Of a DNA stretch of 64,000 nt, positions 13,113-61,736 are shown in pieces (within the stretch, counting starts at the first letter, position 1; each line of letters begins with the position of its first letter). The notes beneath the pieces are model-generated. The model searched no databases, was not told the origin of the DNA, and saw only the letters and a program-made list of their open reading frames with translations. The stretch spans positions 554,156,001-554,220,000 of the forward strand of contig NW_027362764.1 in the NCBI RefSeq assembly GCF_046119375.1, read 5' to 3'. Both the position numbers and the translations under genes were made by a program. The DNA is from Phyllobates terribilis. Taxonomy: Eukaryota.

Positions 13113-13116
13113 CTAT

Positions 13117-22227: not shown

Positions 22228-23135
22228 TAGAGATGAGCGTTGTTCTACTCGAACTGTTCGCCAATCTCAAATTCGAGCTGTTTTGGGCGGTGTTCGAGCC
22301 GTTCGGCGAACACGAACAATTTGAGAAAAATTCGGCTGTTCGAGGTTATGTTCGATAACTGTTCGTGCACCAAAATCATAACTGGATTTTTTCTCAGTAA
22401 TGATGAAAATTAATGTTAATACGCAGTTTGAGTGTACAGCGGGGTGGGGGGAGGGGCAGGGGATGGATCTCTGCAGGAACAATGAAGATCTCCATTTTTT
22501 TTTCTCTTTCCCGCATTTACAGTGGGGAGGTGCAATCTGTCAGCCTATCAGCAGCGCACACACGGAGCGAAGTGCTTTTTTTCACACAAGCAAGGGCATG
22601 TGTCATTGGCAGTGTATGTCACATGTCCTTGCCCTATAAGACCAAGCCATTTTCCCCGTCGCCACCATTTTCTCACTGCTGCAGCTGCGTGTTAGATGGC
22701 ACCGCTGTTGCTGTGTGCGCTATACCTTGTTAATTTCAAGCCAATTTTCGCACAAATATACAGATAGCTTGGGAGTAGGGAATAGTTGTGATTGCAGTCC
22801 TTTTAAGGACTAGGTTACAGCATTTCCTACGACTTTTATCAGGGAGGTCTGTGCTCTTAAATAGATAGGTTGTGGGAGTAAAGACTAATTGTAATTGGAG
22901 TCCTTTTCAGTACTAGGTTACATGAGTTCCTATCAGTTTTTGCCAGGCAGGTCTGTGCAAGTTTTTTTCACAGCATTTGGCTGAATCTAGCAAAGCTAAT
23001 CCTTTTTGGCCTATTGCAGAGTGTGTTAGTCAGTGGAGTAGCCTATCTGTGTTGCAAGATATACCACCTGTGTATAGAATACCAATTTTTTTACTGCACC
23101 TAGTGAAGTAAAATCTTTTGGGCATAGCATCATTC

Positions 23136-25540
23136 TATTAGTCCATCTATACTGACCTCCATCAGGTTGCAAATTAAAACTAATTTTTATCTGCATCTAC
23201 AGTACCTCTGAAAAAATATTTGGGCTTCTAGCAGTGTGTGGGACTTGTTCTATTAGTCCATCTATACTGACCTCCATCAGGTTGCAAACTGAATATATTT
23301 TTTTCTGCATCTACCTCTGAAAAAATATTGGGCTTCTAGCTGTGTGTGGGTCTTGTTCTATTAATCCATCTATACTGACCTCCATCAGGTTGCAAACTGA
23401 AAATAATTTTTTTCTGCATCTAGCTCTGAAAAAATATTTGGCCTTCTAGTAGTGTGTCGGACTTTCTCTATTAGTCCATCTATACTGACCTCCATCAGGT
23501 TGCAAATTAAAACTAATTTTTATCTGCATCTACAGTACCTCTGAAAAAATATTTGGGCTTCTAGCTGTGTGTGGGACTTGTTGTATTAGTCCATCTATAC
23601 TGACCTCCATCAGGTTGCAAACTGAATATATTTTTTTCTGCATCTACCTCTGAAAAAATATTTGGCCTTCTAGTAGTGTGTCGGACTTTCTCTATTAGTC
23701 CATCTATACTGACCTCCATCAGGTTGCAAATTAAAAATAATTTTTATCTGCATCTACAGTACCTCTGAAAAAATATTTGGGCTTCTAGCTGTGTGCGGGA
23801 CTTGTTGTATTAGTCCATCTATACTGACCTCCATCAGGTTGCAAACTGAATATATTTTTTTCTGCATCTACCTCTGAAAAAATATTTGGCCTTCTAGTAG
23901 TGTGTCGGACTTTCTCTATTAGTCCATCTATACTGACCTCCATCAGGTTGCAAATTAAAACTAATTTTTATCTGCATCTACAGTACCTCTGAAAAAATAT
24001 TTGGGCTTCTAGCAGTGTGTGGGACTTGTTCTATTAGTCCATCTATACTGACCTCCATCAGGTTGCAAACTGAATATATTTTTTTCTGCATCTACCTCTG
24101 AAAAAATATTTGGCCTTCTAGTAGTGTGTCGGACTTTCTCTATTAGTCCATCTATACTGACCTCCATCAGGTTGCAAATTAAAACTAATTTTTATCTTCA
24201 TCTACAGTACCTCTGAAAAAATATTTGGGCTTCTAGTAGGGTGTCGGACTTTCTCTATTAGTCCATCTATACTGACCTCCATCAGGTTGCAAACTGAATA
24301 TAATTTTTTTCTGCATCTAGCTCTGAAAAAATATTTGGCCTTCTAGTAGTGTGTCGGACTTTCTCTATTAGTCCATCTATACTGACCTCCATCAGGTTGC
24401 AAATTAAAACTAATTTTTATCTGCATCTACAGTACCTCTGAAAAAATATTTGGGCTTCTAGCAGTGTGTGGGACTTGTTCTATTAGTCCATCTATACTGA
24501 CCTCCATCAGGTTGCAAACTGAATATATTTTTTTCTGCATCTACCTCTGAAAAAATATTGGGCTTCTAGCTGTGTGTGGGTCTTGTTCTATTAATCCATC
24601 TATACTGACCTCCATCAGGTTGCAAACTGAATATATTTTTTTCTGCATCTACCTCTGAAAAAATATTTGGCCTTCTAGTAGTGTGTCGGACTTTCTCTAT
24701 TAGTCCATCTATACTGACCTCCATCAGGTTGCAAATTAAAACTAATTTTTATCTGCATCTACAGTACCTCTGAAAAAATATTTGGGCTTCTAGCAGTGTG
24801 TGGGACTTGTTCTATTAGTCCATCTATACTGACCTCCATCAGGTTGCAAACTGAATATAGTTTTTTCTGCATCTACCTCTGAAAAAATATTGGGCTTCTA
24901 GCTGTGTGTGGGTCTTGTTCTATTAATCCATCTATACTGACCTCCATCAGGTTGCAAACTGAATATATTTTTTTCTGCATCTACCTCTGAAAAAATATTT
25001 GGCCTTCTAGTAGTGTGTCGGACTTTCTCTATTAGTCCATCTATACTGACCTCCATCAGGTTGCAAATTAAAACTAATTTTTATCTGCATCTACAGTACC
25101 TCTGAAAAAATATTTGGGCTTCTAGCTGTGTGTGGGACTTGTTGTATTAGTCCATCTATACTGACCTCCATCAGGTTGCAAACTGAATATATTTTTTTCT
25201 GCATCTACCTCTGAAAAAATATTTGGCCTTCAAGTAGTGTGTCGTACTTTCTCTATTAGTCCATCTATACTGACCTCCATCAGGTTGCAAATTAAAAATA
25301 ATTTTTATCTGCATCTACAGTACCTCTGAAAAAATATTTGGGCTTCTAGCTGTGTGCGGGACTTGTTGTATTAGTCCATCTATACTGACCTCCATCAGGT
25401 TGCAAACTGAATATTTTTTTTTCTGCATCTACCTCTGAAAAAATATTTGGCCTTCTAGTAGTGTGTCGGACTTTCTCTATTAGTCCATCTATACTGACCT
25501 CCATCAGGTTGCAAATTCAAAATAATTTTTTTCTGCATCT
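23136..25540 (+). repeat. Internal VNTR of hAT copy 2, ~22 units of 108-115 bp
   Basis: TATTAGTCCATCTATACTGACCTCCATCAGGTTG starts at 23136, 23251, 23359 ... 25478. Long (115 bp, +CAGTAC) and short (108-110 bp) units mostly alternate. Confidence 0.96.
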
Positions 25541-25657
25541 AACCCAGCCAATAGTTTTGGCCTAATACCACAGTTTGGCCACTCAGCTCTGCTCGGTTAC
25601 CATCCATTGTTTTTTTGTGCAAACAACTCCAGAGTTGTGAATTAGTTAACCACCAAA

Positions 25658-28600
25658 ATGAGTGGAAAAAGGCCTGCTGCTGGTGGAAAGGGGAATAGGC
25701 GTGTTGGGAAGGGGAAAAAAGGTTGTGTCCGTGGGGTAGGTGTTAAAGCAACAGTAACATCTGCAGAAGAAAGACCATCTTCCAGCCAAACTAAAATGTC
25801 TACTTCTTTTAGCGGACAATGTGATAAGATCCCTTTCTTACGGCCACGCCAATCGCTACAAGTTCCAGATGAGGCACAAAAACAGCAGGTGCTTCAACGG
25901 ATATCAAGTGCTCCTTTAAGTGGGCTCTCCTCCACATCAACTTCAACATCACAAATACTCCAGTTCTCAAAGGTGTCACCCAAATCGCACTTGCTTCCTC
26001 ACAGCTCCCAAATCTCCAGCTGCCCGTCTGAGTATGAGGTAGAACAGATGGTTGAGTCTGCAGAGCTGTTTACTCATACTATAGCCTGGGAATCAGAGGT
26101 CGACTCCAGCGCTTCTGTGAATCCAGACGAGGAAATGATCTGCACTGATGCCCAGAATCTTTATGAGTCGGATCCAGGACCAGACGCAGAAGGTTCTGAC
26201 CATAATGTAGACCCTCATTCCCAAACTGTAACTCCTGTTGGTGGAGACAATGAGGAAGACGATGATAAGACTCAAATACCTGATTGGAGCGACAACTTTA
26301 GTTTTTTGTCAGGGCAGGAACAGGTTGGCTCTGAGGACGACGGGTGTGATAACGCACAGGGTGATGATGATGAGGTCGGAGATCCCACTTACTGTCAACC
26401 CACAGTCAGCCAAGAGATGAGGTCAGCAGAGGAGGTGGAGGAAGATGCTAGTGACGACGAGGTCAGGTTGCGCCTTCCTGGACAGAGGCGTAGTACTGGA
26501 AGCACGTCAACAACTGCATCCTCAAACACAACTCTGCCTCTCACCACAAGTCGTGGTGGCTCTTCAGGTCGCATGGGTGCTAAGCCTTGCATAGCCTGGG
26601 CATTTTTTCAGATCGATAAAGATGACCCAACTCGTGTTATCTGTAACATTTGTCAGCAAAAGCTAAGTAGAGGCCAAAAAATACATAGTTTGAGTACTTC
26701 ATGCATGAACCAGCATATGGACATGAAGCATAAGTTGCAGTGGGAAGCTCAGTGTGCTACAATGCGGCCTAGCCGGCCGGGCCAACCACCGTCTGCCATA
26801 TCTTGTGCATCCGCGGCCTCTTCATCCTCTGTGACTGGGGGGACAGCAGTCACACCTGTTTTGGGGCGCAGACCGGCCACCTCTTTACCCGCAACAGCCA
26901 GCGTGATTGGCAGGTCATCATTTTCTTTGGAGGTGGTAACACCAGCTGGTATTGAGCGCTGTCCGACATCGATAGCACCACCTTTGGATGAAGGCAACCT
27001 AACATGTCCGCCTGCATCTTCCTCACAGACCGGCAGTTTGCCGGGGACACCTTTATCAACCCCGTCTAAGCACAATAGCCAGCCCTCGGTCCCTCAGATG
27101 TGGACAAGTAAAAGACCATTTCCTCCTAGCCATGAGAAAGCTAAGAGGTTGAATTTCACCATCTGCAAGCTCTTGGCTACAGAAATGCTGCCTTTCCGCC
27201 TGGTGGACACAGAGAATTTACGAGACCTTATGTCCGTCGCAGTGCCCCAGTACCAGATGCCCAGTCGGCACTACTTCTCAAAGAAAGGTGTGCCTGCGCT
27301 CCACCAGCATGTCGCACATAACATCACCGCTTCTTTGAGAAACTCTGTGTGTGACAGGGTGCATTTCACCACAGACACTTGGACGAGTAGGCATGGACAG
27401 GGGCGTTACATGTCGCTGACTGGGCACTGGGTAACTATAGTGACAGCAGGACAAGGGGCTGCTGTCCAAGTCTTGCCGTCCCCACGAGTTGTGCGTCAAT
27501 CCTCTTTATGTCAAAGTTCCTCCACTGCTTCTGCCTCCTCAACCTCCTCTCGGTCTTCCACCTGCACCCAAAGCCTGTCTGGTCATGCCACAAGCTTTCT
27601 AACTGCGCAGAAGGGATCCTGCACACCTCCTTACTATGCTGGCAGTAGGGCTCAACGTCATCAGGTGGTTTTTACATTGAAATGTCTGGGAAATGTGAGT
27701 CACACAGCTGAGGAGTTGTGGTCAGCTCTGGAGAACCAATTTCATGAATGGTTGTCTCCACTGGACCTGAAACCAGGGAAGGCCGTGTGCGACAATGCTG
27801 CAAACCTGGGTGCGGCCCTTCGCCGGGGCAATGTCACACACGTGCCTTGTATGGCTCACGTGTTGAACCTGGTTGTCCAGCAATTTTTAGCCCACTATCC
27901 CAGACTAGATGGCCTTCTGCAGAGGGCACGGTCGCTGTGTGCTCACTTCCGCCGTTCGCATCCCGCAGCTCAGCGACTTACATCTCTACAGAAGTCGTTG
28001 GGCCTGCCACTTCACCGGCTAAAATGCGATGTGCCTACCCGGTGGAATTCAACTCTGCACATGTTGCAGCGACTGTGGCAGCACCGACAAGCCCTGGTGC
28101 AATACGTTCTGACGTATAGCCTGGGCCAACGAGATTCAGAGGTGGGGCAAATCACGCTGGAGGAGTGGTCTCAGATCAGGGACCTATGCACCCTTCTGCA
28201 CAGTTTTGAAATGGCGATGAAGATGTTTAGTGCTGACGATGCCATTATCAGCATGACTATTCCGGTGATTTACATGCTGGAGCACATGTTAAACAGAATT
28301 CGGAGTCAGGTGGTGGCACAAGAGGAGGTGGAGGAAGTAGAGGAGGAGGAGTTGTATGCAGAAGGGCTAACATCTGCAAGGTCCAGAAGGTCGGCAGCAC
28401 CAAGGCGGCAGGCATGTGAGGGTGGGGGAGATGGTTTTACCAGGGCGCATGGTAGCAGCCAAACTAGTGAGGAAGGTGCAGGAGCCCAGGAAGAAGTGGA
28501 GGACGAACTGATGGAAGACTCATCAGATGAGGGAGACCTTGATCACATTTCTGTTGTGCGAGGTTGGGGGGAGAGGACAGAGGAAGGAAGCATGATTGTT

Positions 28601-29247
28601 ACCTCGCCACCAACACAACAGGGACTTGGTGCTCCTGGATGCGCAACACACATGAGTGCCTTCTTGCTGCACTACCTGCAACATGACCCTCGAATTGTGA
28701 GAATTAGAAATAATCCTGACTACTGGGTTGCCACACTGTTAGATCCCCGGTACAAAAGTAAATTTGCAGAAATTATTCCAACTTGCCAACCGTGGGACCG
28801 TCAAGTGTTCAGCACTCAAACCGTAACAGAACTACAGTATCTGCTGGTAACATCAATTTTGCGGAATCATTTCACCACTTTTTTAGCCCATCCTTTGCAA
28901 GGCCACAGGAGACAAGAAGTCTGACACATAGTCAACGCCTAGAGACGATGGTACAGGAGTATCTCCAAGTAAACATTGAAGCCACGACTGTGTCACTGGA
29001 CCCTTGCTCTTTTTGGGCTTCCAATCTGGATAAATGGCCGGAGCTAGCCACTTACGCCTTGGAGATCTTGTCATGCCCCGCAGCCAGCGTTCTGTCTGAA
29101 CGTGTGTTCAGCGCTGCTGGTGGTGTGCTGACAGATAAGCGCACGCGGCTCTCCACTGATAATGTAGACAGACTCACGTTCATAAAGATGAACAAATCAT
29201 GGATCCGAAACGACTTTTCTACCCCTGTGTCATCCTGGGGAGAGTAA
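25658..29247 (+). pseudogene. hAT transposase, frameshifted by a 112-bp deletion at ~28779
   Basis: The 1088-aa ORF carries the BED finger, D (FTTDTW), D (VCDNAA), CxxH and RW. The catalytic E (LSERVFS) lies in another frame (ORF 28783-29247). Relative to copy 3, bases 56557-56668 are missing between TTCC microhomologies. Confidence 0.95.
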
Positions 29248-29464
29248 AAGCTTGATGATTGGTTAAAATCACCCTACCAAACGTTTTAAGCTTTCAAATT
29301 ACTAATCATGTTTATCTGTATCTTGACTGGAAAATAATTTGGGCTTTGTAGCAGTGTGCAGCACTGATCCTATTAGGCCATCTATAATAAGCTCCACCAG
29401 ATTTAAAATTAAAAATAATTTTTAGCTGCATCTAGCCCGGAAAATAATTTTGGGGCTCCGAGAT

Positions 29465-29571
29465 GCGCAAGACACATAAGTGCTTTCTTGCTGCACTACC
29501 TGCAGCATGACCCTCATATTGTCAGAATTCGAAGTAATCATGACTACTGGGTTGCCACACTCTTAGATCCC
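29465..29571 (+). pseudogene. Duplicated hAT transposase fragment (LHYLQHDP...LLDP), continued at 30947-31016 beyond the Tc1
   Basis: Sequence matches the transposase C-terminal third. The Tc1 end abuts the TA of (T)TACATGTGCTTTTCC. Confidence 0.85.
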
Positions 29572-30946
29572 CCAAACTTTTCGATCAACCTTTTCATTTT
29601 AATAAAGACCAAAAAAATGGTCATTTTTGAAATTATAAGCATTAGCAGGTTGTTAGAAACTGAAATCAAACAGTTTTCAACTCAAAACTTTATTCTAGGT
29701 GATGTTACATTTTCACATAGGACCCCTTGTTCGAAAGGAGCTTCTGAACTCTCTCGTCCATTGAATTTGTCAGGTTTTGGATGGTTTCTGCTTCAATTGT
29801 TTTGCATGAGGACAGAATACCCTCCCAGAGCTGTTGCTTAGATGTGAACTGCCTCCCGCCATCATAGACACTCCTTTTAATGATGCTCCAAAGGTTCTGA
29901 ATGGGGTAGAGGTCAGGGGAGCATGGGGGTCACACCATAAGTTTGTCCCCTTTTATGCCCATATCAGCCAGAGATGCAGATGTTTTATGTGCAGCATGAG
30001 ATGGTGCATTATCATGCAGAAAAATGATGTTGCTGTGAAATACACGGTTCTTCTTCTTGAACCATGGCAGGAAGTGCTGTTTGAGAAAATCCACATACAT
30101 TATGGAGTTCATCTTTAGCGCCTTCAGGGATCCTAAAGGGGCCGACAATCTCTCTCCCCATGATTCCAGCCCAAAACATTACTCCACCTCCTCCTTGTTG
30201 GCGCTGTAGCCGTGTTTGCGTGGGGTGTCCATCAACCAGCCATCCTCCACTCCATCCATCTGGACCATCGAGCGCTGCACGGCACTCATCCGTGAACAAA
30301 ACAGTTTTGAAATCAGTCTTCATGTAATGTTTGGCCCACTGGAGCCGTTTCTGCTTGTGTGAAGTGGATAGAGGAGGTCGACAGGATGGCGTATGCACAG
30401 CTGCAAACCTCTGAAGGACCCTGCATCTTGTTGTTCGGGGGACGTTGGAGGCACAACTAGCTTCAAAAACTTGTCTGCTGCTATGACAAGGCTTTTTTGC
30501 CGCTGCTCTTTCAACCTGACGTAATTGCCTGTAGGAAAGAGTCCTCAATTTGCCCTTATCAGCACGCACACGTGTGTACTGTGAATCAGCTACATACTTC
30601 TTGATTGCCAAGACACTTCATCCTGATCATCGCACAATGTTGATTGTAGTCATGCCTTGACCTAAACACTCCACAATTTGTTGCTTCTCAGCAGCCGACA
30701 CATCCTTTTTCTTTCCCATTTTGGCAGAAAATGTAGGCTGCTTAATAATGTGAGAGAGCCTTCTTAAGTAGTCTTGCCTTTCATTGGACACACCTGCCAA
30801 ACTAATTAGCACAGGTGTCTGCAATTGCTTACAGTGATATAAAGAGCCCTGACACACATCACCATCAATGAGTTTAACTGACAAACAAACAAATTCTTCC
30901 CTTATCACTCCTAAACACTTTTTGCATAATAATTTGGAACGCGGTG
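29572..30946 (-). mobile_element. Dead one-ended Tc1-like element, cargo of hAT copy 2
   Basis: MGKKKDVSAAEKQQIVECL (paired-like HTH), VLFTDECR, FLHDNAPSH. WPPCSPDLNPIE is degraded to *PPCSPDLYPIQ. One TIR (..TGCATAATAATTTGGAAC..GTG|TA) at the right. Confidence 0.9.
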
Positions 30947-31016
30947 TACATGTGCTTTTCCACAAAACACCAGCGGTTCACGTAGTGAATCTTAGAGTTC
31001 TAACTTGCCAACCGTG

Positions 31017-32840
31017 GTCTGTATGGAATTGTTCAATAAAGGGCCCAAAATTAAGATAACATAGATGGGAGAGGTCTCTATGAATAGGAATTCCTAAGTA
31101 TTTGATACCCTGTGAGGGCCAGGCAAAGGGAAAGTTGGACTGGATGGAATCCTATATGGATTTGGGGAGGGAGACATCGAGGGCCTCAGACTTCGCTGCA
31201 TTGATTTTAAAATTTTACCATGTAACAAAGTGATCTATTTCAGCCATAACAGCATGGATGGATATATGTGATTGAGTGATATATACTAGGACATCATCAG
31301 CAAATAGAGAGCACTTGTACTCGGTGCCTCCCACCTCAATCCACCTAATATTGGGGTTATGGCGAATTGATGAGAGCAGGTGCTCCGTCACTAGGATGTA
31401 TAAGAGAGGGGACAGAGGACATCCCTGCCTTGTCCCATTGGTGATTGTGAAAGGTGATGAAAATGTTCTGACGCACCCCCTGGGCCTTGGGACACCCGGA
31501 GCCGGACCCTTTTTGGTGGATGCTGGTGGTTGTAGTCTTCGTGGCGGCGACCCGGTTCCGTGGCTCAGGGCGGTCAAACCAGTGGCGGAACTATTTATGT
31601 GGTTTTGATGTTTAAATGTCCGACTACGCCACCCGTGGATTGCGGTCAGAGTGAACCGCCGCTACAGGGCAGACCGCTGAGGCTGGTGTTGTGGGTGCAG
31701 CAGAGCGTAGCATAACTCCCCACGGGAGGAGTATAGCCTCAGGGCAGTGTATGCGGAGGATGGGGGTGATGGTGCAGGGCAGCAGCAGTAACGACACGGA
31801 GTCAGTGATGCAGTCCAGGGCCTTTACTCACAGTTCTTATTATCCAGACCACGTTTGCAGGTAACGGCTGCCCACGTCGTACTGTGCTCACCAGGTGAGG
31901 GGCTCAGACAACTCCCAGATAACTTTGGAGCACTTCACAGGACCCCCTTTGTGTGTCCTTTGTCTGGCCTTTCTTACCAACACTTCTGTCCGGCTGCCTC
32001 GGGCCTCCTCTTGGTAAACTTGGCGCCAGTTTCCCTGACCCTATGTGGTGCCTTCCTAGCGGGTGTAGCGAGGGGCTGCGCCACATAAAATGTCAGAGCC
32101 TCCGGTTTCTAGCTGAGGGTCGTTTCCTGCCTCCACTAGTTCAGGGACTGGTCTCCCCCTTTGGCCTGACCCCTCCACGCAGGTGGATTCGGGCGTGCGG
32201 TGGCGACTCGCCCGTCCGCACCCCTGGGATCCCTTCATTCCTCGTTCCTGGAGCCTTCTCCGCTCCTCTTCCTTCCTTCTCCCTCTTCCAGGCCTGGGCC
32301 TCTGTTACTAGGCCCGCCTCCGGAGCAGATCTCATGCTGAGCCTCTGCTCCCTGCCACTTCTGCTCAGACTTCTCTGCACTGAACTAAGATGGTGCCCAC
32401 CTTTTATACTCCCTTCTCAATGCACCCAGGAACTGCTTCCTCCCTGCTCCTGCACTACAGGGTTCCCCTTCCTCAGTGTTCCCTCCCCCCACTCCAGCCA
32501 GGGACAGGGACTGTCGTGCCCATCTCAGGGGCATATTGGTCGCCCTGCCCCACGGCAATGTGGTGTAATGCATGCAGGTGTCGGGTCCTGATCCACACTC
32601 CATCCTTACCTGAGAGTGAGATATCACACCTCTGGGTGAGGTGCAATACGTCTGTAGCAACCGAGCCCTCAGGGTGCTACAGTTCCATTTATCTTCAGCC
32701 TAGGTGACGTATTGCGATACAGGGCCGTGATTTTGGCTATAAAAGGGTCCCCTAGACCCCTACCCCAAGCTTTTTAAGAGAATCATATATGGCGTGCCAG
32801 GAGACTCTATGGAATGCTTTCTCAGCATCCAACGAGAGTA
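31017..32840 (-). mobile_element. L1-clade LINE reverse-transcriptase fragment (split by a solo LTR), cargo of hAT copy 2
   Basis: LSLDAEKAFHRV...LKINGT (32682-32840) joins FSSPFTITNGTRQGCPLSPLLY...LFADD...KYLGI (31017-31468). Confidence 0.9.
31469..32681 (-). mobile_element. Solo LTR within the L1 cargo (1213 bp)
   Basis: TGAC...TACA termini and 4-bp TSD GTTC. The L1 frame is restored on removal. Minus-strand TATAAAA (~32405) then AGTAAA (~31825). Confidence 0.82.
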
Positions 32841-32949
32841 TCTAATTACAAATTTTTAACTGCATCTAGCCCAGGAAATACTTAGTGCCTAGTAGCAGTG
32901 TCTGCTAGTCAGCGGATTATCCCGGCTGTTAAGCAAGCTACACCACCTG

Positions 32950-45960: not shown

Positions 45961-46270
45961 TTTTTATTACTTTTTATGGGTTTAATAACAAATATCAATG
46001 ATGCAATTTTTTTACGCCATTTACCGATCATCATAAATAATCTGATTGTTGTGTTGTTTGGGTAGTCACGATTACAGGGACACAAGTATATTTGTGTTAT
46101 TTGCAGATTTGTGATGTTTATTATTTTTTAAAAAATGCATTAAAAATGACATTATTGCACATGTTTTTCATTATTTTTTAGTAATTTTAGGGGAAGAAAG
46201 ATTTTCCCCCTAAAATATAGGCACATAGTAATACATTGCTATATACAAATGTATCTCTACATATCAGTAT

Positions 46271-48990: not shown

Positions 48991-51335
48991 GACTGCCGAG
49001 GACATAGATAAATATTTATTTTTTCTGATGAAGCCAACTTCAACAGGGGTTTCAGTATTTTTATAAGAGGATGCCTAGTTATTCTTGTTTTCAAATCTTA
49101 CAGCATTTTGTGAAAAAGTGACAAATTGATTTAGTGGGTCATCCCCTTCAATCGAACAAAGGAAAAAGCACAGAAATATAAAACAAGCTATACATCTGCC
49201 TAGCTATTCAGGCTTTTTGTAACTCCAAACCTGTTACTCCCAATTGTTGCCCTGTAACAGCATACTTCAATCATTTGAATTCACCATTTCGGCTTTTGGG
49301 GCAGAAAACAAATATGTATGAACACAACAACACATTTCTTCTATCGAACACCTTTTCCATCTGTCAACTCATTACTAATTTTTGTAGCTTTTCCTAACTC
49401 TTTATAGACAAAAAAAAAATCATACTTTGTCATGACTCATTGAAATCACATGTCTATCCTACTTAATACAAACAAAAAGATTATTATTATTACTCTGTCA
49501 CTACATCATAAACTCTGTTTTACTTGCTTAAGACACAGACATTCATGCCGTATATATAATTATGCAGGGTGGTGATCACAATCCAGTGGCCTGTATGAAC
49601 AGATCTTGCTAAGTATTAAGATTTAGAAATTATTCATTGCAGAAAATTTACTTGGAAACTTATAGAAAAATAAACTAAATAAATAGTATATTACATACCA
49701 TTATTAAAACCATAATATTAATTCATGTTTGTTCCCATGACTTTCTGTAACAGCTGCCTCTCTGCACAACTAAATAGCTTGCTTTAAGGTCAATTAGTAA
49801 AGTAAGCAAAGTTAGGAAAGCAGCAGCAGAGGTAGCAAAATCAGCAAATTGTATGTTAATTGTCTTGTTCACATCTCAGAAGCCAGATTATTTATGATGC
49901 AAAGCAGGTTGACTCATGTCAGGAAAATGTCTCTGTGAAATAGTTCAGTCAACAGAGGATAATTAAGTATCCTCCATGTGCATTTTCATTTCACAAATGC
50001 CTGAACTTTACAGACAGCTGTTGTGTGCACTGGCTTTTCAGGTGGAAAATTTCATTTTAAACCAAGCTCATTTTTCTAAAGATAAAATACATTTGAAATA
50101 TTTGGCATTACATTTTTTTCTGCATATTTTGAATGTTTTACATGCCCAGAAATAAAAGTGTACCCTACTTGTTAGCAGACAATGTAACTTAAATGCATAA
50201 AACTAAGCAAGTAGGTTTTCCATTTTTTCATTAGCTCTTGACAACACAGAACTTGTAAAATTAGTTTGTCTTCTGTTAAAAAACTTCTTCCATAAGCAAC
50301 AGCAGAACAAGATTTATTTTTAGCTCATATCTCTGAATTATGTTTCCATTGCAAATCAAAGATATAAAAATGTTAAGGTCATATTGTGCAATGGCTGGAG
50401 TAGAAGAACTGTTAAGTAGAGATGAGCGTTGTTCTACTCGAACTGTTCGCCAATCTCAAATTTGAGCTGTTTTGGGCGGTGTTCGAGCCGTTCGGCGAAC
50501 ACGAACAATTTGATAAAAATTCGGCTGTTCGAGGTTATGTTCGATAACTGTTCGTGCACCAAAATCATAACTGGATTTTTTCTCAGTAATGATGAAAATT
50601 AATGTTAATACGCAGTTTGAGTGTACAGCGGGGTGGGGGGAGGGGCAGGGGATGGATCTCTGCAGGAAAAATGAAGATCTCCATTTTTTTTTCCCTTTCC
50701 CGCATTTGCAGTGGGAAGGTGCAATCTGTCAGCCTATCAGCAGCGCACACACGGAGCGAAGTGCTTTTTTTCACACAAGCAAGGGCATGTGTCATTGGCA
50801 GTGTATGTCACATGTCCTTGCCCTATAAGACCAAGCCATTTTCCCCGTCGCCACCATTTTCTCACTGCTGCAGCTGCGTGTTAGACGGCACCGCTGTTGC
50901 TGTGTGCGCTATACCTTGTTAATTTCAGGCCAATTTTCGCACAAATCTACAGATAGCTTGGGAGTAGGGAATAGTTGTGATTGCAGTCCTTTTAAGGACT
51001 AGGTTACAGCATTTCCTACGACTTTTATCAGGGAGGTCTGTGCTCTTAAATAGATAGGTTGTGGGAGTAAAGACTAATTGTAATTGGAGTCCTTTTCAGG
51101 ACTAGGTTACATCAGTTCCTATCAGTTTTTGCCAGGCAGGTCTGTGCCAGTGCTGTGCAAGTTTTTTTCACAGCATTTGGCTGAATCTTGCAAAGCTAAT
51201 CCTTTTTGGCCTATTGCAGAGTGTGTTAGTCAGTGGAGTAGCCTATCTGTGCTGCAAGATATACCACCTGTGTATAGAATACCAATTTTTTTACTGCACC
51301 TAGTGAACTAAAATCTTTTGGGCATAGCATCATTC

Positions 51336-53319
51336 TATTAGTCCATCTATACTGACCTCCATCAGGTTGCAAATTAAAACTAATTTTTATCTGCATCTAC
51401 AGTACCTCTGAAAAAATATTTGGGCTTCTAGCTGTGTGTGGGACTTGTTGTATTAGTCCATCTATACTGACCTCCATCAGGTTGCAAACTGAATATATTT
51501 TTTTCTGCATCTACCTCTGAAAAAATATTTGGGCTTCTAGCTGTGTGTGGGTCTTGTTCTATTAATCCATCTATACTGACCTCCATCAGGTTGCAAACTG
51601 AATATAATTATTTTCTGCATCTAGCTCTGAAAAAATATTTGGCCTTCTAGCAGTGTGTCGGACTTTCTCTATTAGTCCATCTATACTGACCTCCATCAGG
51701 TTGCAAATTAAAAATAATTTTTATCTGCATCTACAGTACCTCTGAAAAAATATTTGGGCTTCTAGCTGTGTGTGTGACTTCTTGTATTAGTCCATCTATA
51801 CTGACCTCCATCAGGTTGCAAATTAAAAATAATTTGTATCTGCATCTACAGTACCTCTGAAAAAATATTTGGGCTTCTAGCTGTGTGTGGGACTTGTTGT
51901 ATTAGTCCATCTATACTGACCTCCATCAGGTTGCAAACTGAATATATTTTTTTCTGCATCTGCCTCTGAAAAAATATTTGGGCTTCTAGCTGTGTGTGGC
52001 ACTTGTTGTATTAGTCCATCTATACTGACCTCCATCAGGTTGCAAATTAAAAATAATTTGTATCTGCATCTACAGTACCTCTGAAAAAATATTTGGGCTT
52101 CTAGCTGTGTGTGGGACTTGTTGTATTAGTCCATCTATACTGACCTCCATCAGGTTGCAAACTGAATATATTTTTTTCTGCATCTACCTCTGAAAAAATA
52201 TTTGGGCTTCTAGCTGTGTGTGGGACTTGTTGTATTAGTCCATCTATACTGACCTCCATCAGGTTGCAAATTAAAAATAATTTGTATCTGCATCTACAGT
52301 ACCTCTGAAAAAATATTTGGGCTTCTAGCTGTGTGTGGGACTTGTTGTATTAGTCCATCTATACTGACCTCCATCAGGTTACAAATTAAAAATAATTTGT
52401 ATCTGCATCTACAGTACCTCTGAAAAAATATTTGGGCTTCTAGCTGTGTGTGGGACTTGTTGTATTAGTCCATCTATACTGACCTCCATCAGGTTGCAAA
52501 TTAAAAATAATTTGTAACTGCATCTACAGTACCTCTGAAAAAATATTTGGGCTTCTAGCTGTGTGTGGGACTTGTTGTATTAGTCCATCTATACTGACCT
52601 CCATCAGGTTGCAAACTGAATATATTTTTTTCTGCATCTACCTCTGAAAAAATATTTGGGCTTCTAGCTGTGTGTGGGACTTGTTGTATTAGTCCATCTA
52701 TAATGACCTCCATCAGGTTGCAAATTAAAAATAATTTGTATCTGCATCTACAGTACCTCTTAAAAAATATTTGGGCTTCTAGCTGTGTGTGGGACTTGTT
52801 GTATTAGTCCATCTATACTGACCTCCATCAGGTTGCAAATTAAAAATAATTTTATCTGCATCTACAGTACCTCTGAAAAAATATTTGGGCTTCTAGCTGT
52901 GTGTGGGACTTGTTGTATTAGTCCATCTATACTGACCTCCATCAGGTTGAAAATTAAAAATAATTTGTATCTGCATCTACAGTACCTCTGAAAAAATATT
53001 TGGGCTTCTAGCTGTGTGTGGGACTTGTTGTATTAGTCCATCTATACTGACCTCCATCAGGTTGAAAATTAAAAATAATTTGTATCTGCATCTACAGTAC
53101 CTCTGAAAAAATATTTGGGCTTCTAGCTGTGTGTGGGACTTGTTGCATTAGTCCATCTATACTGACCTCCATCAGGTTGCAAACTGAATATAATTTTTTT
53201 CTGCATCTATCTCTGAAAAAATATTTGGCCTTGTAGCAGTGTGTCGGACTTTCTCTATTAGTCCATCTATACTGACCTCCATCAGGTTGCAAACTGAATA
53301 TATTTTTTTCTGCATCTAA
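51336..53319 (+). repeat. Internal VNTR of hAT copy 3, ~18 units of 109-115 bp
   Basis: Same unit as 23136-25540 but dominated by the 115-bp variant. Confidence 0.96.
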
Positions 53320-53434
53320 CCCAGCCAATAGTTTTGGCCTAATACCACAGTTTGGCCACTCAGCTCTGCTCGGTTACCATCCATTGTTTTTTTGTGCAAA
53401 CAACTCCAGAGTTGTGAATTAGTTAATCACCAAA

Positions 53435-56400
53435 ATGAGTGGAAAAAGGCCTGCTGCTGGTGGAAAGGGGAATAGGCATGTTGGGAAGGGGAAAAAAGGT
53501 TGTGTCCGTGGGGTAGGTGTTAAAGCAACAGTAACATCTGCAGAAGAAAGACCATCTTCCAGCCAAACTAAAATGTCTACTTCTTTTAGCGGACAATGTG
53601 ATAAGATCCCTTTCTTACGGCCACGCCAATCGCTACAAATTCCAGATGAGGCACAAAAACAGCAGGTGCTTCAACGGATATCAAGTGCTCCTTTAAGTGG
53701 GCTCTCCTCCACATCAACTTCAACATCACAAATACTCCAGTCCTCAAAGGTGTCACCCAAACCGCACTTGCTTCCTCACAGCTCCCAAATCTCCAGCTGC
53801 CCGTCTGAGTATGAGGTAGAATAGATGGTTGAGTCTGCAGAGCTGTTTACTCATATTATAGCCTGGGAATCAGAGGTCGACTCCAGCGCTTCTGTGAATC
53901 CAGACGAGGAAATGATCTGCACTGATGCCCAGAATCTTTATGAGTCGGATCCAGGACCAGACGCAGAAGGTTCTGACCATAATGTAGACCCTCATTCCCA
54001 AACTGTAACTCCTGTTGGTGGAGACAATGAGGAAGACGATGATAAGACTCAAATACCTGATTGGAGCGACAACTTTAGCTTTTTGTCAGGGCAGGAACAG
54101 GTTGGCTCTGAGGACGACGGGTGTGATAACACACAGGGTGATGATGATGAGGTTGGAGATCCCACTTACTGTCAACCCACAGTCAGCCAAGAGATGAGGT
54201 CAGCAGAGGAGGTGGAGGAAGATGCTAGTGACGACGAGGTCAGGTTGCGCCTTCCTGGACAGAGACGTAGTACTGGAAGCACGTCAACAACTGCATCCTC
54301 AAACACAACTCTGCCTCTCACCACAAGTCGTGGTGGCTCTTCAGGTCGCATGGGTGCTAAGCCTTGCATAGCCTGGGCATTTTTTCAGATCAATAAAGAT
54401 GACCCAACTCGTGTTATCTGTAACATTTGTCAGCAAAAGCTAAGTAGAGGCCAAAAAATACATAGTTTGAGTGCTTCATGCATGAACCGGCACATGGACA
54501 TGAAGCATAAGTTGCAGTGGGAAGCTCAGTGTGCTACAATGCGGCCTAGCCGGCCGGGCCAACCACCGTCTGCCATATCTTGTGCATCCGCGGCCTCTTC
54601 ATCCTCTGTGACTGGGGGGACAGCAGTCACACCTGTTTTGGGGCGCAGACCTGCCACCTCTTTACCCGCAACAGCCAGCGTGATTGGCAGGTCATCATTT
54701 TCTTTGGAGGTGGTAACACCAGCTGGTGTTGAGCGCTGTCCGACATCGATAGCACCACCTTTGGATCAAGGCAACCTAACATGTCCGCCTGCATCTTCCT
54801 CACAGACCGGCAGTTTGCCGGGGACACCCTTATCAACCCCGTCTAAGCAGAATAGCCAGCCCTCGGTCCCTCAGATGTGGACAAGTAAAAGACCATTTCC
54901 TCCTAGCCATGAGAAAGCTAAGAGGTTGAATTTCACCATCTGCAAGCTCTTGGCTACAGAAATGCTGCCTTTCCGCCTGGTGGACACAGAGGATTTTCGA
55001 GACCTTATGTCTGTCGCAGTGCCCCAGTACCAGATGCCCAGTCGGCACTACTTCTCAAAGAAAGGTGTGCCTGCGCTCCACCAGCATGTCGCACACAACA
55101 TCACCGCTTCTTTGAGAAACTCTGTGTGTGACAGGGTGCATTTCACCACAGACACTTGGACGAGTAGGCATGGACAGGGGCGTTACATGTCGCTGACTGG
55201 GCACTGGGTAACTATGGTGACAGCAGGACAAGGGGCTGCTGTCCAAGTCTTTCCGTCCCCACGAGTTGTGCGGCAATCCTCTTTATGTCAAAGTTCCTCC
55301 ACTGCTTCTGCCTCCTCAACCTCCTCTCGGTCTTCCACCTGCACCCAAAGCCTGTCTGGTCATGCCACAAGCTTTCTAACTGCGCAGAAGGGATCCTGCA
55401 CACCTCCTTACTATGCTGGCAGTAGGGCTCAACGTCATCAGGCGGTTTTTACATTGAAATGTCTGGGAAATGTGAGTCACACAGCTGAGGAGTTGTGGTC
55501 AGCTCTGGAGAACCAATTTCATGAATGGTTGTCTCCACTGGACCTGAAACCAGGGAAGGCCGTGTGCGACAATGCTGCAAACCTGGGTGCGGCCCTTCGC
55601 CGGGGCAATGTCACAAACGTGCCTTGTATGGCTCACGTGTTGAACCTGGTTGTCCAGCAATTTTTAGCCCACTATCCCAGACTAGATGGCCTTCTGCAGA
55701 GGGCACGGTCGCTGTGTGCTCACTTCCGCCGTTCGCATCCCGCAGCTCAGCGACTTACATCTCTACAGAAGTCGTTGGGCCTGCCACTTCACCGGCTAAA
55801 ATGCGATGTGCTTACCCGGTGGAATTCAACTCTGCACATGTTGCAGCGACTGTGGCAGCACCGTCAAGCCCTGGTGCAATACGTTCTGATGTATAGCCTG
55901 GGCCAACGAGATTCAGAGGTGGGGAAAATCACGCTGGAGGAGTGGTCTCAGATCAGGGACCTATGCACCCTTCTGCACAGTTTTGAAATGGCGACGAAGA
56001 TGTTTAGTGCAAACGATGCCATTATCAGCATGACTATTCCAGTGATTTACATGCTGGAGCACATGTTAAACAGAATTCGGAGTCAGGTGGTGGCACAAGA
56101 GGAGGTGGAGGAAGTAGAGGAGGAGGAGTTGTATGCGGAAGGGCTAACATCTGCAAGGTCCAGACGGTCGGCAGCACCAAGGCGGCAGGCATGTGAGGGT
56201 TGGGGAGATGGTTTTACCAGGGCGCATGGTAGCAGCCAAACTAGTGAGGAAGGTGCAGGAGCCCAGGAAGAAGTGGAGGACGAACTGATGGAAGACTCAT
56301 CAGATGAGGGAGACCTTGATCACATTTCTGTTGTGCGAGGTTGGGGGGAGAGGACAGAGGAAGGAAGCATGATTGTTACCTCGCCACCAACACAACAGGG

Positions 56401-57136
56401 ACTTGGTGCTCCTGGATGCGCAACACACATGAGTGCCTTCTTGCTGCACTACCTGCAACATGACCCTCGAATTGTGAGAATTAGAAATAATCCTGACTAC
56501 TGGGTTGCCACACTGTTAGATCCCCGGTACAAAAGTAAATTTGCAGAAATTATTCCTGCCATAGAAAGGGATGCACGCATGCAGGAGTATCAGCAGAGAC
56601 TGTTGCAGAATCTTACATGTGCTTTTCCACAAAATACCAGTGGTGCACGTAGTGAATCTCACAGTTCCAACTTGCCAACCGTGGGACCGTCAAGTGTTCA
56701 GCACTCAAACCGTAACAGAACCACAGTATCTGGTGGTAACATCAATTTTGCGGAATCATTTCACCACTTTTTTAGCCCATCCTTTGCAAGGCCACAGGAG
56801 ACAAGAAGTCTGACACATAGTCAACGCCTAGAGACGATGGTACAGGAGTATCTCCAAGTAAACATTGAAGCCACGACTGTGTCACTGGACCCTTGCTCTT
56901 TTTGGGCTTCCAATCTGGATAAATGGCCGGAGCTAGCCACTTACGCCTTGGAGATCTTGTCATGCCCCGCAGCCAGCGTTCTGTCTGAACGTGTGTTCAG
57001 CGCTGCTGGTGGTGTGCTGACAGATAAGCGCACGCGGCTCTCCACTGATAATGTAGACAGACTCACGTTCATAAAGATGAACAAATCATGGATCCGAAAC
57101 GACTTTTCTACCCCTGTGTCATCCTGGGGAGAGTAA
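53435..57136 (+). CDS. hAT (Ac-group) transposase, 1233 codons with one premature TAG at codon 130; downstream 1103-aa ORF (53825-57136) retains all core domains
   Basis: GAA TAG ATG at 53819-53827 versus GAA CAG ATG in copy 2. BED finger, FTTDTW, VCDNAA, CMAH, TRWNST, LLDPRY and LSERVFS are all in frame. Confidence 0.9.
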
Positions 57137-57460
57137 AAGCTTGATGATTGTTTAAAATCACCCTACCAACCGTTTTAAGCTTTCAACTTACTAATCATGT
57201 TTATCTGTATCTTGACTGGAAAATAATTTGGGCTTTGTAGCAGTGTGCAGCACTGATCCTATTAGGCCATCTATAATAAGCTCCACCAGATTTAAAATTA
57301 AAAATAATTTTTAGCTGCATCTAGCCCGGAAAATAATTTTGGGGCTCCGAGATGCGCAAGACACATAAGTGCCTTCTTGCTGCACTACCTGCAGCATGAC
57401 CCTCATATTGTCAGAATTCGAAGTAATCATGACTACTGGGTTGCCACACTCTTAGATCCC

Positions 57461-58835
57461 CCAAACTTTTCGATCAACCTTTTCATTTTAATAAAGACCA
57501 AAAAAATGGTCATTTTTGAAATTATAAGCATTAGCAGGTTGTTAGAAACTGAAATCAAACAGTTTTCAACTCAAAACTTTATTCTAGGTGATGTTACATT
57601 TTCACATAGGACCCCTTGTTCGAAAGGAGCTTCTGAACTCTCTCGTCCATTGAATTTGTCAGGTTTTGGATGCTTTCTGCTTCAATTGTTTTTCATGAGG
57701 ACAGAATACCCTCCCAGAGCTGTTGCTTAGATGTGAACTGCCTCCCGCCATCATAGACACTCCTTTTAATGATGCTCCAAAGGTTCTGAATGGGGTAGAG
57801 GTCAGGGGAGCATGGGGGTCACACCATAAGTTTGTCCCCTTTTATGCCCATATCAGCCAGAGATGCAGATGTTTTATGTGCAGCATGAGATGGTGCATTA
57901 TCATGCAGAAAAATGATCTTGCTGTGAAATACACGGTTCTTCTTCTTGAACCATGGCAGGAAGTGCTGTTTGAGAAAATCCACATACATTATGGAGTTCA
58001 TCTTTAGCGCCTTCAGGGATCCTAATGGGGCCGACAATCTCTCTCCCCATGATTCCAGCCCAAAACATTACTCCACCTCCTCCTTGTTGGCGCTGTAGCC
58101 GTGTTTGCGTGGGGTGTCCATCAACCAGCCATCCTCCACTCCATCCATCTGGACCATCGAGCGCTGCACGGCACTCATCCGTGAACAAAACAGTTTTGAA
58201 ATCAGTCTTCATGTAATGTTTGGCCCACTGGAGCCGTTTCTGCTTGTGTGAAGTGGATAGAGGAGGTCGACAGGATGGCGTATGCACAGCTGCAAACCTC
58301 TGAAGGACCCTGCATCTTGTTGTTCGGGGGACGTTGGAGGCACAAGCAGCTTCAAAAATTTGTCTGCTGCTATGACAAGGCTTTTTTGCCGCTGCTCTTT
58401 TAACCTGACGTAATTGCCTGTAGGAAAGAGTCCTCAATTTGCCCTTATCAGCACGCACACGTGTGTACTGTGAATCAGCTACATACTTCTTGATTGCCAA
58501 GACACTTCATCCTGATCATCGCACAATGTTGATTGTAGTCATGCCTTGACCTAAACACTCCACAATGTGTTGCTTCTCAGCAGCCGACACATCCTTTTTC
58601 TTTCCCATTTTGGCAGAAAATGTAGGCTGCTGAATAATGTGAGAGAGCCTTCTTAAGTAGTCTTGCCTTTCATTGGACACACCTGACAAACTAATTAGCA
58701 CAGGTGTCTGCAATTGCTTACAGTGATATAAAGAGCCCTGACACACATCACCATCAATGAGTTTAACTGACAAACAAACAAATTCTTCCCTTATCACTCC
58801 TAAACACTTTTTGCATAATAATTTGGAACACAGTG
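57461..58835 (-). mobile_element. Dead one-ended Tc1-like cargo, copy 3
   Basis: Same breakpoints and same lesions (*PPCSPDLYPIQ, frameshifts) as 29572-30946. TIR ends CACAGTG|TA. Confidence 0.9.
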
Positions 58836-58905
58836 TACATGTGCTTTTCCACAAAACACCAGTGGTACACGTAGTGAATCTTACAGTTCTAACTTGCCAA
58901 CCGTG

Positions 58906-60729
58906 GTCTGTATGGAGTTGTTCAATTAAGGGCCCAAAATTAAGATAACATAGATGGGAGAGGTCTCTATGAATAGGAATTCCTAAGTATTTGATACCCT
59001 GTGAGGGCCAGGCAAAGGGAAAGTTGGACTGGATGGAATCCTATATGGATTTGGGGAGGGAGACATCGAGGGCCTCAGACTTCGCTGCATTGATTTTAAA
59101 ATTTGACCAAGTAACAAAGTGATCTATTTCAGCCATAACAGCATGGATGGATATATGTGATTGAGTGATATATACTAGGACATCATCAGCAAATAGAGAG
59201 CACTTGTACTCGGTGCCTCCCACCTCAATCCACCTAATATTGGGGTTATGGCGAATTGATGAGAGCAGGTGCTCCGTCACTAGGATGTATAAGAGAGAGG
59301 ACAGAGAACATCCCTGCCTTGTCCCATTGGTGATTGTGAAAGGTGATGAAAATGTTCTGACGCGCCCCCTGGGCCTTGGGACACCTGGAGCCGGACCCTT
59401 TTTGGTGGATGCTGGTGGTTGTAGTCTCCGTGGCGGCAACCCGGTTCCGTGGCTCAGGGCGGTCAAACCAGTGGCGGAACTATTTATGTGGTTTTGATGT
59501 TTAAATGTCCGACTACGCCACCCGTGGATTGCGGTCAGAGTGAACCGCCGCTCCAGGGCAGACCGCTGAGGCTGGTGTTGTGGGTGCAGCAGAGCGTAGC
59601 ATAACTCCCCACGGGAGGAGTATAGCCTCAGGGCAGTGTATGTGGAGGATGGGGGTGATGGTGCAGGGCAGCAGCAGTAATGACACGGAGTCAGTGATGC
59701 AGTCCAGTGCATTTACTCACAGTTCTTATTATCCAGACCACGTCTGCAGGTAACGGCTGCCCACGTCGTACTGTGCTCACCAGGTGAGGGGCTCAGACAA
59801 CTCCCAGATAACTTTGGAGCGCTTCACAGGACCCCCTTTGTGTGTCCTTTGTCTGGCCTTTCTTACCAACCCTTCTGTCCGGCTGCCTGGGGCCTCCTCT
59901 TGGTAAACTTGGCGCCAGTTTCCCTGACCCTATGTGGTGCCTTCCTAGCGGGTGTAGCGAGGGGCTGCGCCACATAAAATGTCACAGCCTCCTGTTTCTA
60001 GCTGAGAGTCATTTCCTGCCTCCACTAGTTTCAGGGACCGGTCTCCCCCTTTGGCCTGACCCCTCCACGCAGGTGGATTCTGGCGTGCGGTGGCGACTCG
60101 CCCGTCCGCACCCCTGAGATCCCTTCGTTCCTCGTTCCTGGAGCCTTCTACGCTCCTCTTCCTTCCTTCTCCCTCTTCCAGGCTTGGGCCTCTGTTACTA
60201 GGCCCGCCTCCGGACAGAGCTCATGCAGAGCCCCTGCTCCCTGCCACTTCTGCTCAGACTTCTCTGCACTGAACTAAGATGGTGCCCACCTTTTATACTC
60301 CCTTCTCAATGCACCCAGGAACTGCTTCCTCCCTGCTCCTGCACTACAGGGTTCCCCTTCCTCAGTGTTCCCTCCCCCCACTCCAGCCAGGGACAGGGAC
60401 TGTCGTGCCCATCTCAGGGGCATATTGGTCGCCCTGCCCCACGGCAATGTGGTGTAATGCAGGCAGGTGTCGGGTCCTGATCCACACTACATCCTTACCT
60501 GAGAGTGAGATATCACACCTCTGGGTGAGGTGCAATACCTCTGTAGCAACCGAGCCCTCAGGGTGCTACAGTTCCATTTATCTTCAGCCTAGGTGACGTA
60601 TTGCGATACAGGGCCGTGATTTTGGCTATAAAAGGGTCCCCTAGACCCCTACCCCAATCTTTTTAAGAGAATCATATATGGCGTGCCAGGAGACTCTATG
60701 GAATGCTTTCTCAGCATCCAACGAGAGTA
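58906..60729 (-). mobile_element. L1 RT fragment cargo, copy 3
   Basis: GTRQGCSLSSLLY...LFADD; collinear with 31017-32840. Confidence 0.9.
59358..60570 (-). mobile_element. Solo LTR in the L1 cargo, copy 3
   Basis: Same position and GTTC TSD as 31469-32681. Confidence 0.82.
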
Positions 60730-60838
60730 TCTAATTACAAATTTTTAACTGCATCTAGCCCAGGAAATACTTTGTGCCTAGTAGCAGGGTCTGCTAGTCA
60801 GCGGATTATCCCGGCTGTTAAGCAAGCTACACCACCTG

Positions 60839-61107
60839 TAGTTTGGACACTTCATTTTTTCAAAGGAAATGCTTCGGGACCACGGGATACTCAGTGAAGA
60901 GCATCAGGAGGCACCCCAAGGCATAGGGGCTGGGACTGGCAGTAGGATGCCTTGCGGTGGACAGCCGAGCTCGATCCTTATAAAAGCTTTTTAACTGCAG
61001 CAGCTTTAGTGGACGCTACTGGAGCTGGAATTACGCGGCTGCTGGCATGAGACTTGCCCTCCAATAGATCCTTGTAAATGGATTTAAAGTGTATTCATTC
61101 AAATTAG
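60839..61107 (-). rRNA. 18S: Non-functional 18S rRNA fragment, cargo of hAT copy 3
   Basis: Near-identical to 32950-33218. Confidence 0.88.
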
Positions 61108-61736
61108 AGAGACAATTTAAATTAAAAAGCTTAGAGCTGCCTCCACCACAGGGGGGCTCGCTCGACCCACCAGCGGACAGGCACCAGTATTGGGAGAGGG
61201 GGGCTGGCCATCAGGGTTCACCGCGGCTCTGGCACAAACCCGGCGACACGGAGGTGGCACGGGCAGGAGCGGACTGGCCGTGTCGGCTTCTCACTTTTTG
61301 GATTTTAGAAGGGCATGACATGCCTATATCTGTGTCTCCCCCTCCTTTTACTCCTCCACCTCTTTTATTTTCGCATGACTATATGTACTTGTCACTTTTC
61401 CATGTGTTAGTTATGTCTTCTGAGCAGTTTGTCAGCTTTTGGACACCTTTGAAGGTGTTTTCTATGTGTTTCTATGTGTTTTTGTTTGCCTGCCATTGGT
61501 TTTAACGGTGTTCGAAGGTGTTCGACGAACAGTTCGGCGAACACACGGGTGTTCGACGAACTGAACCGAACTCGAACACTACGGGGGTGGCTCAACACTA
61601 CTGTTAAGTCGAATGTAGCCAAATCTAAAGCGTGTAGGAAGCAGAAAGTCTCAGCTTTGAACACTGTTTAGTGGCTGCTGGGAACTGCAGATCAGCTCCT
61701 GTTCTTTACAATAGGAGCTGATCGGCAGCACCCAAC

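Follow-up and report, generated by a model that had tools for sequence, protein, structure and literature searches.

The 64,000-bp stretch of the Phyllobates terribilis genome analysed here (contig NW_027362764.1, positions 554,156,001 to 554,220,000; the window) harbours two complete copies of a large hAT transposon, which carry the same cargo of foreign DNA behind the transposase gene. Copy A (22228-33724, 11,497 bp) and copy B (50417-61600, 11,184 bp) are both located on the plus strand. This structure is confirmed, and the transposition of the loaded 11-kb element as a whole at least once is very probable. When A and B split, their ancestor was already carrying the complete cargo together with an open transposase frame of 1,233 codons, and the two copies have decayed separately since then. 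From their sequence, A and B are predicted to represent a single structural variant, inserted twice, of an autonomous Ac-group hAT of poison-frog type.

Two loaded copies and their movement

Each copy possesses its own perfect 8-bp target site duplication (TSD) directly abutting the ends, namely ATCATAAT in A (22220-22227 and 33725-33732) and CTGTTAAG in B (50409-50416 and 61601-61608), which confirms what an earlier note on this DNA had stated. The chance probability of such a repeat at one fixed position is about 2e-5, and a TSD of 8 bp is present in three of the three complete elements of the window, the third being a relative, C, described below. Read in element orientation, all three TSDs, a small sample, fit nTnnnnAn, the consensus of Ac-group hATs (10.1101/2022.09.16.508221; PMC8961557; here and below, cited papers are represented by those parts of their text that were available).

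The terminal inverted repeats (TIRs), which had been called intact, are present in both copies but are short and imperfect (11 bp, 9/11 matching). Both ends start with TAG-G, and they contain the terminal YARNG motif expected of hAT TIRs (PMC3014272). Since C has the same pair of ends, the mismatches in the TIRs are native to the family. Nine subterminal GTTCG/CGAAC repeats are found in the first 150 bp and twelve in the last 110 bp, versus four in the 11,237 interior bp. The left end of A (22228-23132, 905 bp) comprises an 11-bp TIR and its subterminal repeats, and the right end (33250-33724, about 500 bp), 94% identical to that of C, contains the twelve repeats of the last 110 bp and the second 11-bp TIR, both ends being read on the plus strand. 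An internal satellite with a unit of about 110-115 bp is present in about 21.6 copies in A (23133-25541, 2.4 kb), about 17.6 copies in B (51336-53318, 2.0 kb) and about 6.5 copies in C (9148-9873). Owing to the 2-2.4 kb satellite and the long open reading frame (ORF), the backbone of the element amounts to about 7.7 kb without cargo.

A and B are near neighbours in the same orientation. The 28 kb previously given as their distance holds from start to start, but the actual gap is 16.7 kb (about 17 kb). Their alignment is colinear from end to end and contains, outside the satellite, 122 differences in 9,052 columns (1.35%) and six indels. All junction and landmark windows are in register (12/12), and the lesions of a Tc1 element in the cargo are common to both copies, in agreement with the identical breakpoints and lesions described earlier. 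Homologous flanks, part of the refutation that the earlier note had proposed, were searched for in ten flank pairs, and no homology was found next to the ends; the only strong match is a 61-bp dispersed repeat far from the end of A, and the others are weak (48 bp or less).

Homology that stops exactly at the TIRs, differing TSDs and unrelated flanks exclude a segmental duplication, as had been argued. The copies also differ by their 122 substitutions and unequal satellite lengths. A 99.8% identical 4-kb tandem repeat elsewhere in the window (8504-16458) is a possible artefact and could raise the same suspicion for A and B; nonetheless, duplication or misassembly has almost no probability as their origin. 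Gene conversion or ectopic repair, in which B (or A) would have arrived free of cargo and would afterwards have been replaced with the sequence of its neighbour, is very unlikely. The proximity and common orientation of the copies would suit it, as would the absence of differences in the 209 columns at 33062-33270. However, the cargo is no more alike than the backbone, with 59 differences in 3,770 columns for all cargo and 63 in 5,282 for the backbone (P=0.14), or 30 in 2,558 when an insert resembling a long terminal repeat (LTR) is left out of the cargo (Fisher P=1.0). The longest stretch free of differences measures 486 bp, which does not exceed chance expectation (P=0.14) and thus gives no sign of a conversion tract, and conversion would take a single 11-kb tract from end to end.

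Copy A interrupts an older, distant hAT transposase fossil on the minus strand, with the middle part of the fossil in its right flank (33733-35085) and the C-terminal part in its left flank (21525-22227). The two parts continue in frame when the TSD is counted once, and the fossil shows about 26-57% amino-acid identity to named frog relatives, so that A is a hAT within a hAT. Because the fossil frame runs on across the site, A is a clean insertion into older DNA. No empty-site marker was found for B; four flank ORFs at 47230-49074 and one at 62489-62839 are without Pfam match. Distinct TSDs, unrelated flanks, the clean insertion of A and the equal divergence of backbone and cargo bear out the proposal that the payload was mobilised whole by hAT transposition.

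The transposase of hATs is established to bind short subterminal repeats via its BED finger, to cut at the TIRs and to insert the element with an 8-bp stagger. The transposase of the frog element would act in the same way on its 11-bp TIRs, and since only the ends would be needed, anything between them would travel along. Quite possibly, a single local hop of the loaded element led from one copy to the other, which would have taken place after replication or with gap repair. Local hopping is frequent among cut-and-paste elements (PMC3016246), and therefore two neighbouring copies are no proof of a large family.

The transposase gene

The transposase gene is located on the plus strand at 25658-29247 in A and at 53435-57136 in B, where it spans 1,233 codons. 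The encoded protein possesses a BED zinc finger (zf-BED, PF02892), the D-D-E triad, the CxxH motif and a C-terminal hAT dimerisation domain (PF05699), with the catalytic residues aligned, and it matches Hermes at E 8e-25. In A, a private 112-bp deletion after 28775 shifts the frame, and no stop is present ahead of it. In B, the gene has one private stop at codon 130 (53822-53824). Because these lesions are private to each copy, the ancestral frame was still open when A and B split, which agrees with the earlier statement that the element carried its own transposase. A frame would stay free of stops through 3% neutral decay with a probability of 0.019. When C serves as the outgroup, the derived changes in the gene are divided evenly, 19 in A and 19 in B, and one is assigned to neither. 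The stop in B is immediately followed by ATG (53822-53827), which leaves a frame of 1,103 codons with the BED, DDE and dimerisation domains and without the basic N-terminus; this frame may have residual activity.

Full-length homologues of the transposase correspond to 45 matches among the 7,998 candidates scored, with identity up to 51%; among those that bear a name, frog 'ZBED4/6-like' models rank highest. The search for shorter homologues gave 24 matches among 8,000 scored, the closest being pieces with 70-89% identity from Ranitomeya variabilis, R. imitator and Anomaloglossus baeobatrachus. These poison-frog 'ZBED4/6-like' gene models are automatic, come without DNA context and are silent on cargo. 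In a quick tree of 20 rows, from which Buster, Tip and Hermes are absent, B and the Anomaloglossus protein form a group (Shimodaira-Hasegawa-like approximate likelihood ratio test, SH-aLRT, 100) inside an amphibian clade and apart from ZBED4. These affinities alone would point to a poison frog or a close relative as the most probable host. The nearest non-amphibian homologues are ZBED4-type, and true ZBED4 lies outside the clade of the frog transposases with 24-31% identity.

The whole-gene ratio of nonsynonymous to synonymous rates (dN/dS) was rejected as evidence of selection, since omega values of 0.51 (A-B) and 0.61-0.66 (to C) are not below those of a neutral simulation with transition and CpG bias.

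Content and origin of the cargo

The block behind the transposase, previously given as about 4.3 kb, is shared by both copies, but foreign DNA makes up only about 3.5 kb of it; the rest corresponds to the right end of the family itself, satellite-like units and two scraps of the family transposase. About 3.2 kb of the foreign DNA derives from transposable elements (TEs), and only a piece of about 0.28 kb of 18S ribosomal RNA (rRNA) sequence is host-derived. In A, about 200 bp, the last part of which consists of satellite-like units, separate the transposase from a 3.4-kb block; behind this block lie a further satellite-like unit, the 18S piece and the right end. The cargo block of B (57339-61109) has the same order and junctions. 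The cargo has no evident function and would hitchhike.

The degenerate satellite-like units behind the transposase of A (29289-29451) are native to the family, with a matching unit in C. At a short similarity they meet the first transposase scrap (29450-29572, plus strand, 123 bp), which is 89-90% identical to the genes of A/B and C. This scrap is followed by a dead Tc1 on the minus strand (29573-30946), whose 5′ terminus lies next to a TA at 30947-30948 and whose 3′ end is missing, and by the second scrap (30947-31017, plus strand, 71 bp), which has the same source and lies about 90 bp downstream of the first within the gene. An internal fragment of an L1-type reverse transcriptase (RT) on the minus strand comes next, with its 3′ part at 31018-31468 and its 5′ part at 32682-32845. 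Its frame is split by a solo-LTR-like insert (31469-32681, 1,213 bp) with TG...CA termini and a 4-bp duplication, GTTC, and this insert is 69% identical to an independent insert at 4037-5220. The RT fragment measures about 615 bp in all and matches RVT_1 at E 2e-13; neither a poly(A) nor an own TSD of it was seen in the cargo. We take these pieces to be L1 and solo LTR on the basis of the Pfam RT match, their structure and generally known motifs.

The second satellite-like or subterminal unit (32846-32971) is 72% identical to 22981-23091 and 89% identical over 46 bp to 6925-6970 in C, and it overlaps the edge of the 18S match. In the decayed 18S rRNA fragment (32945-33220, minus strand), the core at about 33090-33220 aligns well, and looser similarity extends to about 32945. 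The fragment scores 68.8 and 63.8 bits in the two copies with the Rfam model RF01960, versus a cut-off of 50.

The lesions of the cargo Tc1 common to A and B include a micro-inversion of about 30 bp, a frameshift and a stop. Therefore, the Tc1 was already dead while the transposase frame of the ancestor was open. The micro-inversion lies between short inverted repeats and is identical in A (30605-30638) and B (58494-58527). The Pfam HTH_Tnp_Tc3_2 match of this Tc1 scores under the curated cut-off, and at the protein level this Tc1 is 85-91% identical to a named Tc1 from the fish Metynnis hypsauchen; a fish-frog horizontal transfer of its family is possible. At 11398-16993 lies another Tc1 fossil, which is unrelated and has inverted repeats of 274 bp (94.5%). 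It is only 29% identical to the cargo Tc1; for the same reason, the flank Tc1 sequence at 11578-11940 was rejected as a local source. CpG depletion was also rejected as a clock for the cargo pieces, with observed/expected values of 0.25-0.86 that are too noisy in such short segments.

Regarding the origin of the cargo, we give a slight preference to a single event, in which most of it would have been copied from an old relative within the family as a 3.4-kb block that was dead by then. This relative would have received a Tc1 at a TA, a deletion and an L1 piece would have been joined in it, and an LTR element would have inserted and then shrunk to a solo LTR. Template switching would have copied the block, with the satellite-like units behind the transposase as the switch points. 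The block lies between two satellite-like units that are 88% alike over 33 bp, as a single template switch would leave.

Alternatively, the cargo may have been built stepwise inside the active lineage by an internal duplication, followed by Tc1, L1, LTR and 18S in successive masters, with long hitchhiking. Both the Tc1, at a TA site, and the LTR, at a GTTC site, represent genuine nested insertions, as stepwise growth would have it, and the scraps resemble the ancestral state of the gene. They share their state with C against A/B at seven sites and with A/B against C at four, and thus derive from an older gene state rather than from a recent local duplication. Five of the seven A/B-specific changes at the former sites are synonymous (binomial P=0.021), a weak hint that the transposase of the active A/B lineage may have been under selection since the scraps split off, which would also suit the stepwise course. 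However, that course requires at least five rare events in a series of masters that all succeeded, the block is bounded by two like units, which a single template switch would produce, and no intermediate is present within the window. One template switch is favoured, and stepwise build-up in active masters is a plausible but less probable course.

Several results weigh against a loaded element that moved by its own transposase and gained its cargo in one step. Only two loaded copies are visible in the window and both are now broken, so that neither has an intact transposase frame (A is frameshifted, and B has a stop). The whole-gene selection test is not significant, neither for A-B (15 synonymous among 41 changed codons, P=0.18) nor for B-C (79 among 254, P=0.12), and the test on the scraps rests on 187 bp. 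The solo-LTR-like insert is more diverged than the backbone (29 differences in 1,212 columns, P=0.003; P=0.14 outside CpG), with the excess mostly at CpG sites, and it drives a mild unevenness in how the differences are spread over the element (chi-square P=0.03). The 64-kb window contains no parental copy of the cargo block, and hence one-step capture is not demonstrated.

A relative with different cargo and the known large hATs

Relative C (26-10747, 10,722 bp) has the same ends in minus orientation and a perfect TSD, CTTACCAT (18-25 and 10748-10755). The transposase of C, 91-93% identical, lies in the opposite orientation to the ends and contains four stops and frameshifts, and two LTR-like inserts (1188-2288 and 4037-5220) interrupt it. 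The transposase is followed by a TTAA-flanked miniature inverted-repeat transposable element (MITE) at about 6467-6691 and by a tyrosine-recombinase (DIRS-like) piece at about 7050-9147. The Tc1, L1 and 18S pieces of A and B are absent from C in the window comparison. Since C has the same ends with different cargo, the payload is not fixed at family level.

The right end of C is cut at the position corresponding to about 33250 of A, just short of the 18S piece. The last unit of its left satellite (9148-9310) is chimeric with the post-transposase unit of A/B (29289-29451), which suggests that a gene deletion may have taken place between satellite-like repeats. The terminal satellite unit of C ends at the same T-run where the cargo of A and B begins, a possible recurrent breakpoint. 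A scrap of the N-terminal region of its own transposase is also present in C at 6842-6900, beside satellite-like units, and echoes the scraps of A and B. The left end of C, its TSD and part of a flanking Tc1 are copied in a 3,978-bp tandem repeat (8504-12480 and 12481-16458, 99.8% identical, nine differences), which is possibly a recent duplication or an assembly artefact.

The earlier note had gone further and described a family with a fixed payload. In its strong form, a widespread family amplified many times with the payload in all members, this is somewhat doubtful. Two complete loaded copies within one 64-kb window, with a divergence of only 1.35%, speak for it. Furthermore, hATs represent 3.9% of a dyeing poison frog assembly (PMC11152451, without family detail), and four elements of hobo_AC had one structure (PMC3014272). 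However, only two copies share the payload, maybe by one local hop, and C differs from them. A 174-residue frame across the L1|scrap|Tc1 junction gave nine matches in 1.84 billion representatives, of which seven cover one part only; no predicted protein among the nine clearly spans the junction, a weak test that is uninformative on DNA copy number. The two junction-crossing matches, with 22-25% overall identity in 6-20 scattered stretches, were judged spurious without inspection.

Other elements were found between A and B. A lone TIR-like end (TAGTGTTGAGC) at 46540-46550 has other subterminal sequence, lies near inverted repeats at 45295-45902 and 46162-46722, and probably corresponds to a related MITE. 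A reverse-transcriptase fragment is present at 37240-37656 (RVT_1, E 3e-7).

The natural size of Hermes, hobo, Tol2 and Ac elements is 3-5 kb. Similar to these Ac-group hATs, the frog element possesses the BED finger, D-D-E, CxxH, the dimerisation domain, an 8-bp nTnnnnAn TSD and subterminal repeats; it differs by its longer transposase (1,233 codons) and its 2-2.4 kb satellite. The novelty that the earlier note had implied from its size is not supported, since autonomous hATs of 9-15 kb with fragments of older TEs and 11-bp TIRs, hobo_AC, are known in Anolis carolinensis (PMC3014272), and Tol2 is reported to carry 10-11 kb of engineered cargo at full efficiency (PMC8151067). For DNA transposons in general, efficiency falls above 6 kb of cargo (PMC6431247); the available text of that review on giant transposons does not mention hAT, Tx1 or nested as whole words. 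ToxhAT was rejected as a precedent, because its duplication is TA and it now counts as Tc1/mariner (PMC12506042).

The hobo_AC elements, called the longest reported hATs by their authors, show seven nesting patterns, one of them common to four elements, and their cargo was interpreted as uptake of genomic DNA which neither stopped nor impaired replication (PMC3014272). Like A and B (11.2-11.5 kb), they bear a transposase and fragments of older class 1 and class 2 TEs, here Tc1, L1 and LTR. Several hobo_AC copies share one cargo structure while others coexist, and likewise A and B share theirs and C differs (n=3). The divergence of 1-2% in hobo_AC, the T at position 2 and A at position 7 of the TSD in hobo non-autonomous families, and the TIR of hobo-N7 to N13 (TAGGCTTGAGC, 9/11 to the right TIR of the frog element) are also comparable (PMC3014272). 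This likeness is by published description and TIR. In contrast to the frog element, hobo_AC belongs to a lizard and carries Chapaev, RTE, CR1 and a short interspersed element (SINE), and no internal satellite or rRNA piece is mentioned in the available text (PMC3014272).

The earlier comparison with Pack-MULE and Pack-TIR elements is not supported, because the cargo consists of nested dead TEs and a ribosomal DNA (rDNA) scrap, partly from a relative of the element itself, and includes no captured genes. Pack-hAT-N8_XT of Xenopus tropicalis is a multicopy Pack-TIR with 291 bp of a gene's 5′ untranslated region in a hAT-N element at three sites; the median Pack-TIR insert is 224 bp, and microhomology with template switching was proposed for capture (PMC8277862). 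Similar to A and B, it is a frog hAT that moved captured DNA, with a distinct TSD per copy. However, it has an identified TE-free parental copy, and a Pack-TIR is defined by a unique parental copy of at least 90% identity without flanking TEs (PMC8277862), whereas none is present in the window for the element described here, in which 3.5 kb of debris from TEs and rDNA accompanies a transposase gene. Its 3.4-3.8 kb block falls within the Pack-TIR insert size of 100-5,000 bp, but about 3.2 of 3.5 kb is TE-derived and not the internal non-TE host sequence that marks a Pack-TIR (PMC8277862). With no known parental copy and almost all TE cargo, the frog element acts like a multicopy Pack-TIR and is not classed as one. 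No publication on this frog hAT family was found in the literature searched, which leaves out most subscription journals.

The element is thus a frog case of the already known large composite hAT kind, following the hobo_AC pattern, rather than a new kind. It is set apart by its internal satellite, by the 18S scrap and by the scraps of family origin that lie at the junctions of the cargo. It reveals neither a new mechanism nor useful cargo. It documents from nature that an 11-kb hAT transported dead sequences at a time when its transposase frame had not yet been interrupted, and thereby brings the lizard pattern into frogs. Should loaded copies prove numerous, a single old Tc1, L1 or LTR piece would pass for a young burst in the repeat-age profiles of these large genomes. 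In that case, repeat libraries built automatically would also break the element up into several families, and 18S-like matches would be scattered outside rDNA. Because A and B are broken at different places, the family transposase is testable as a further large-cargo hAT tool.

A broader reading, which we consider tentative and rather unlikely, assumes that a self-sufficient hAT lineage of poison frogs was active until recently, that the satellite-like units flanking its transposase serve as exchange points, so that the gene can be deleted, as in C, or several kb of cargo loaded, and that the loaded variant spread widely. Such a lineage would have multiplied satellite, an rDNA scrap and dead Tc1, L1 and LTR pieces as false young copies, and would offer a natural large-cargo vector from a frog.

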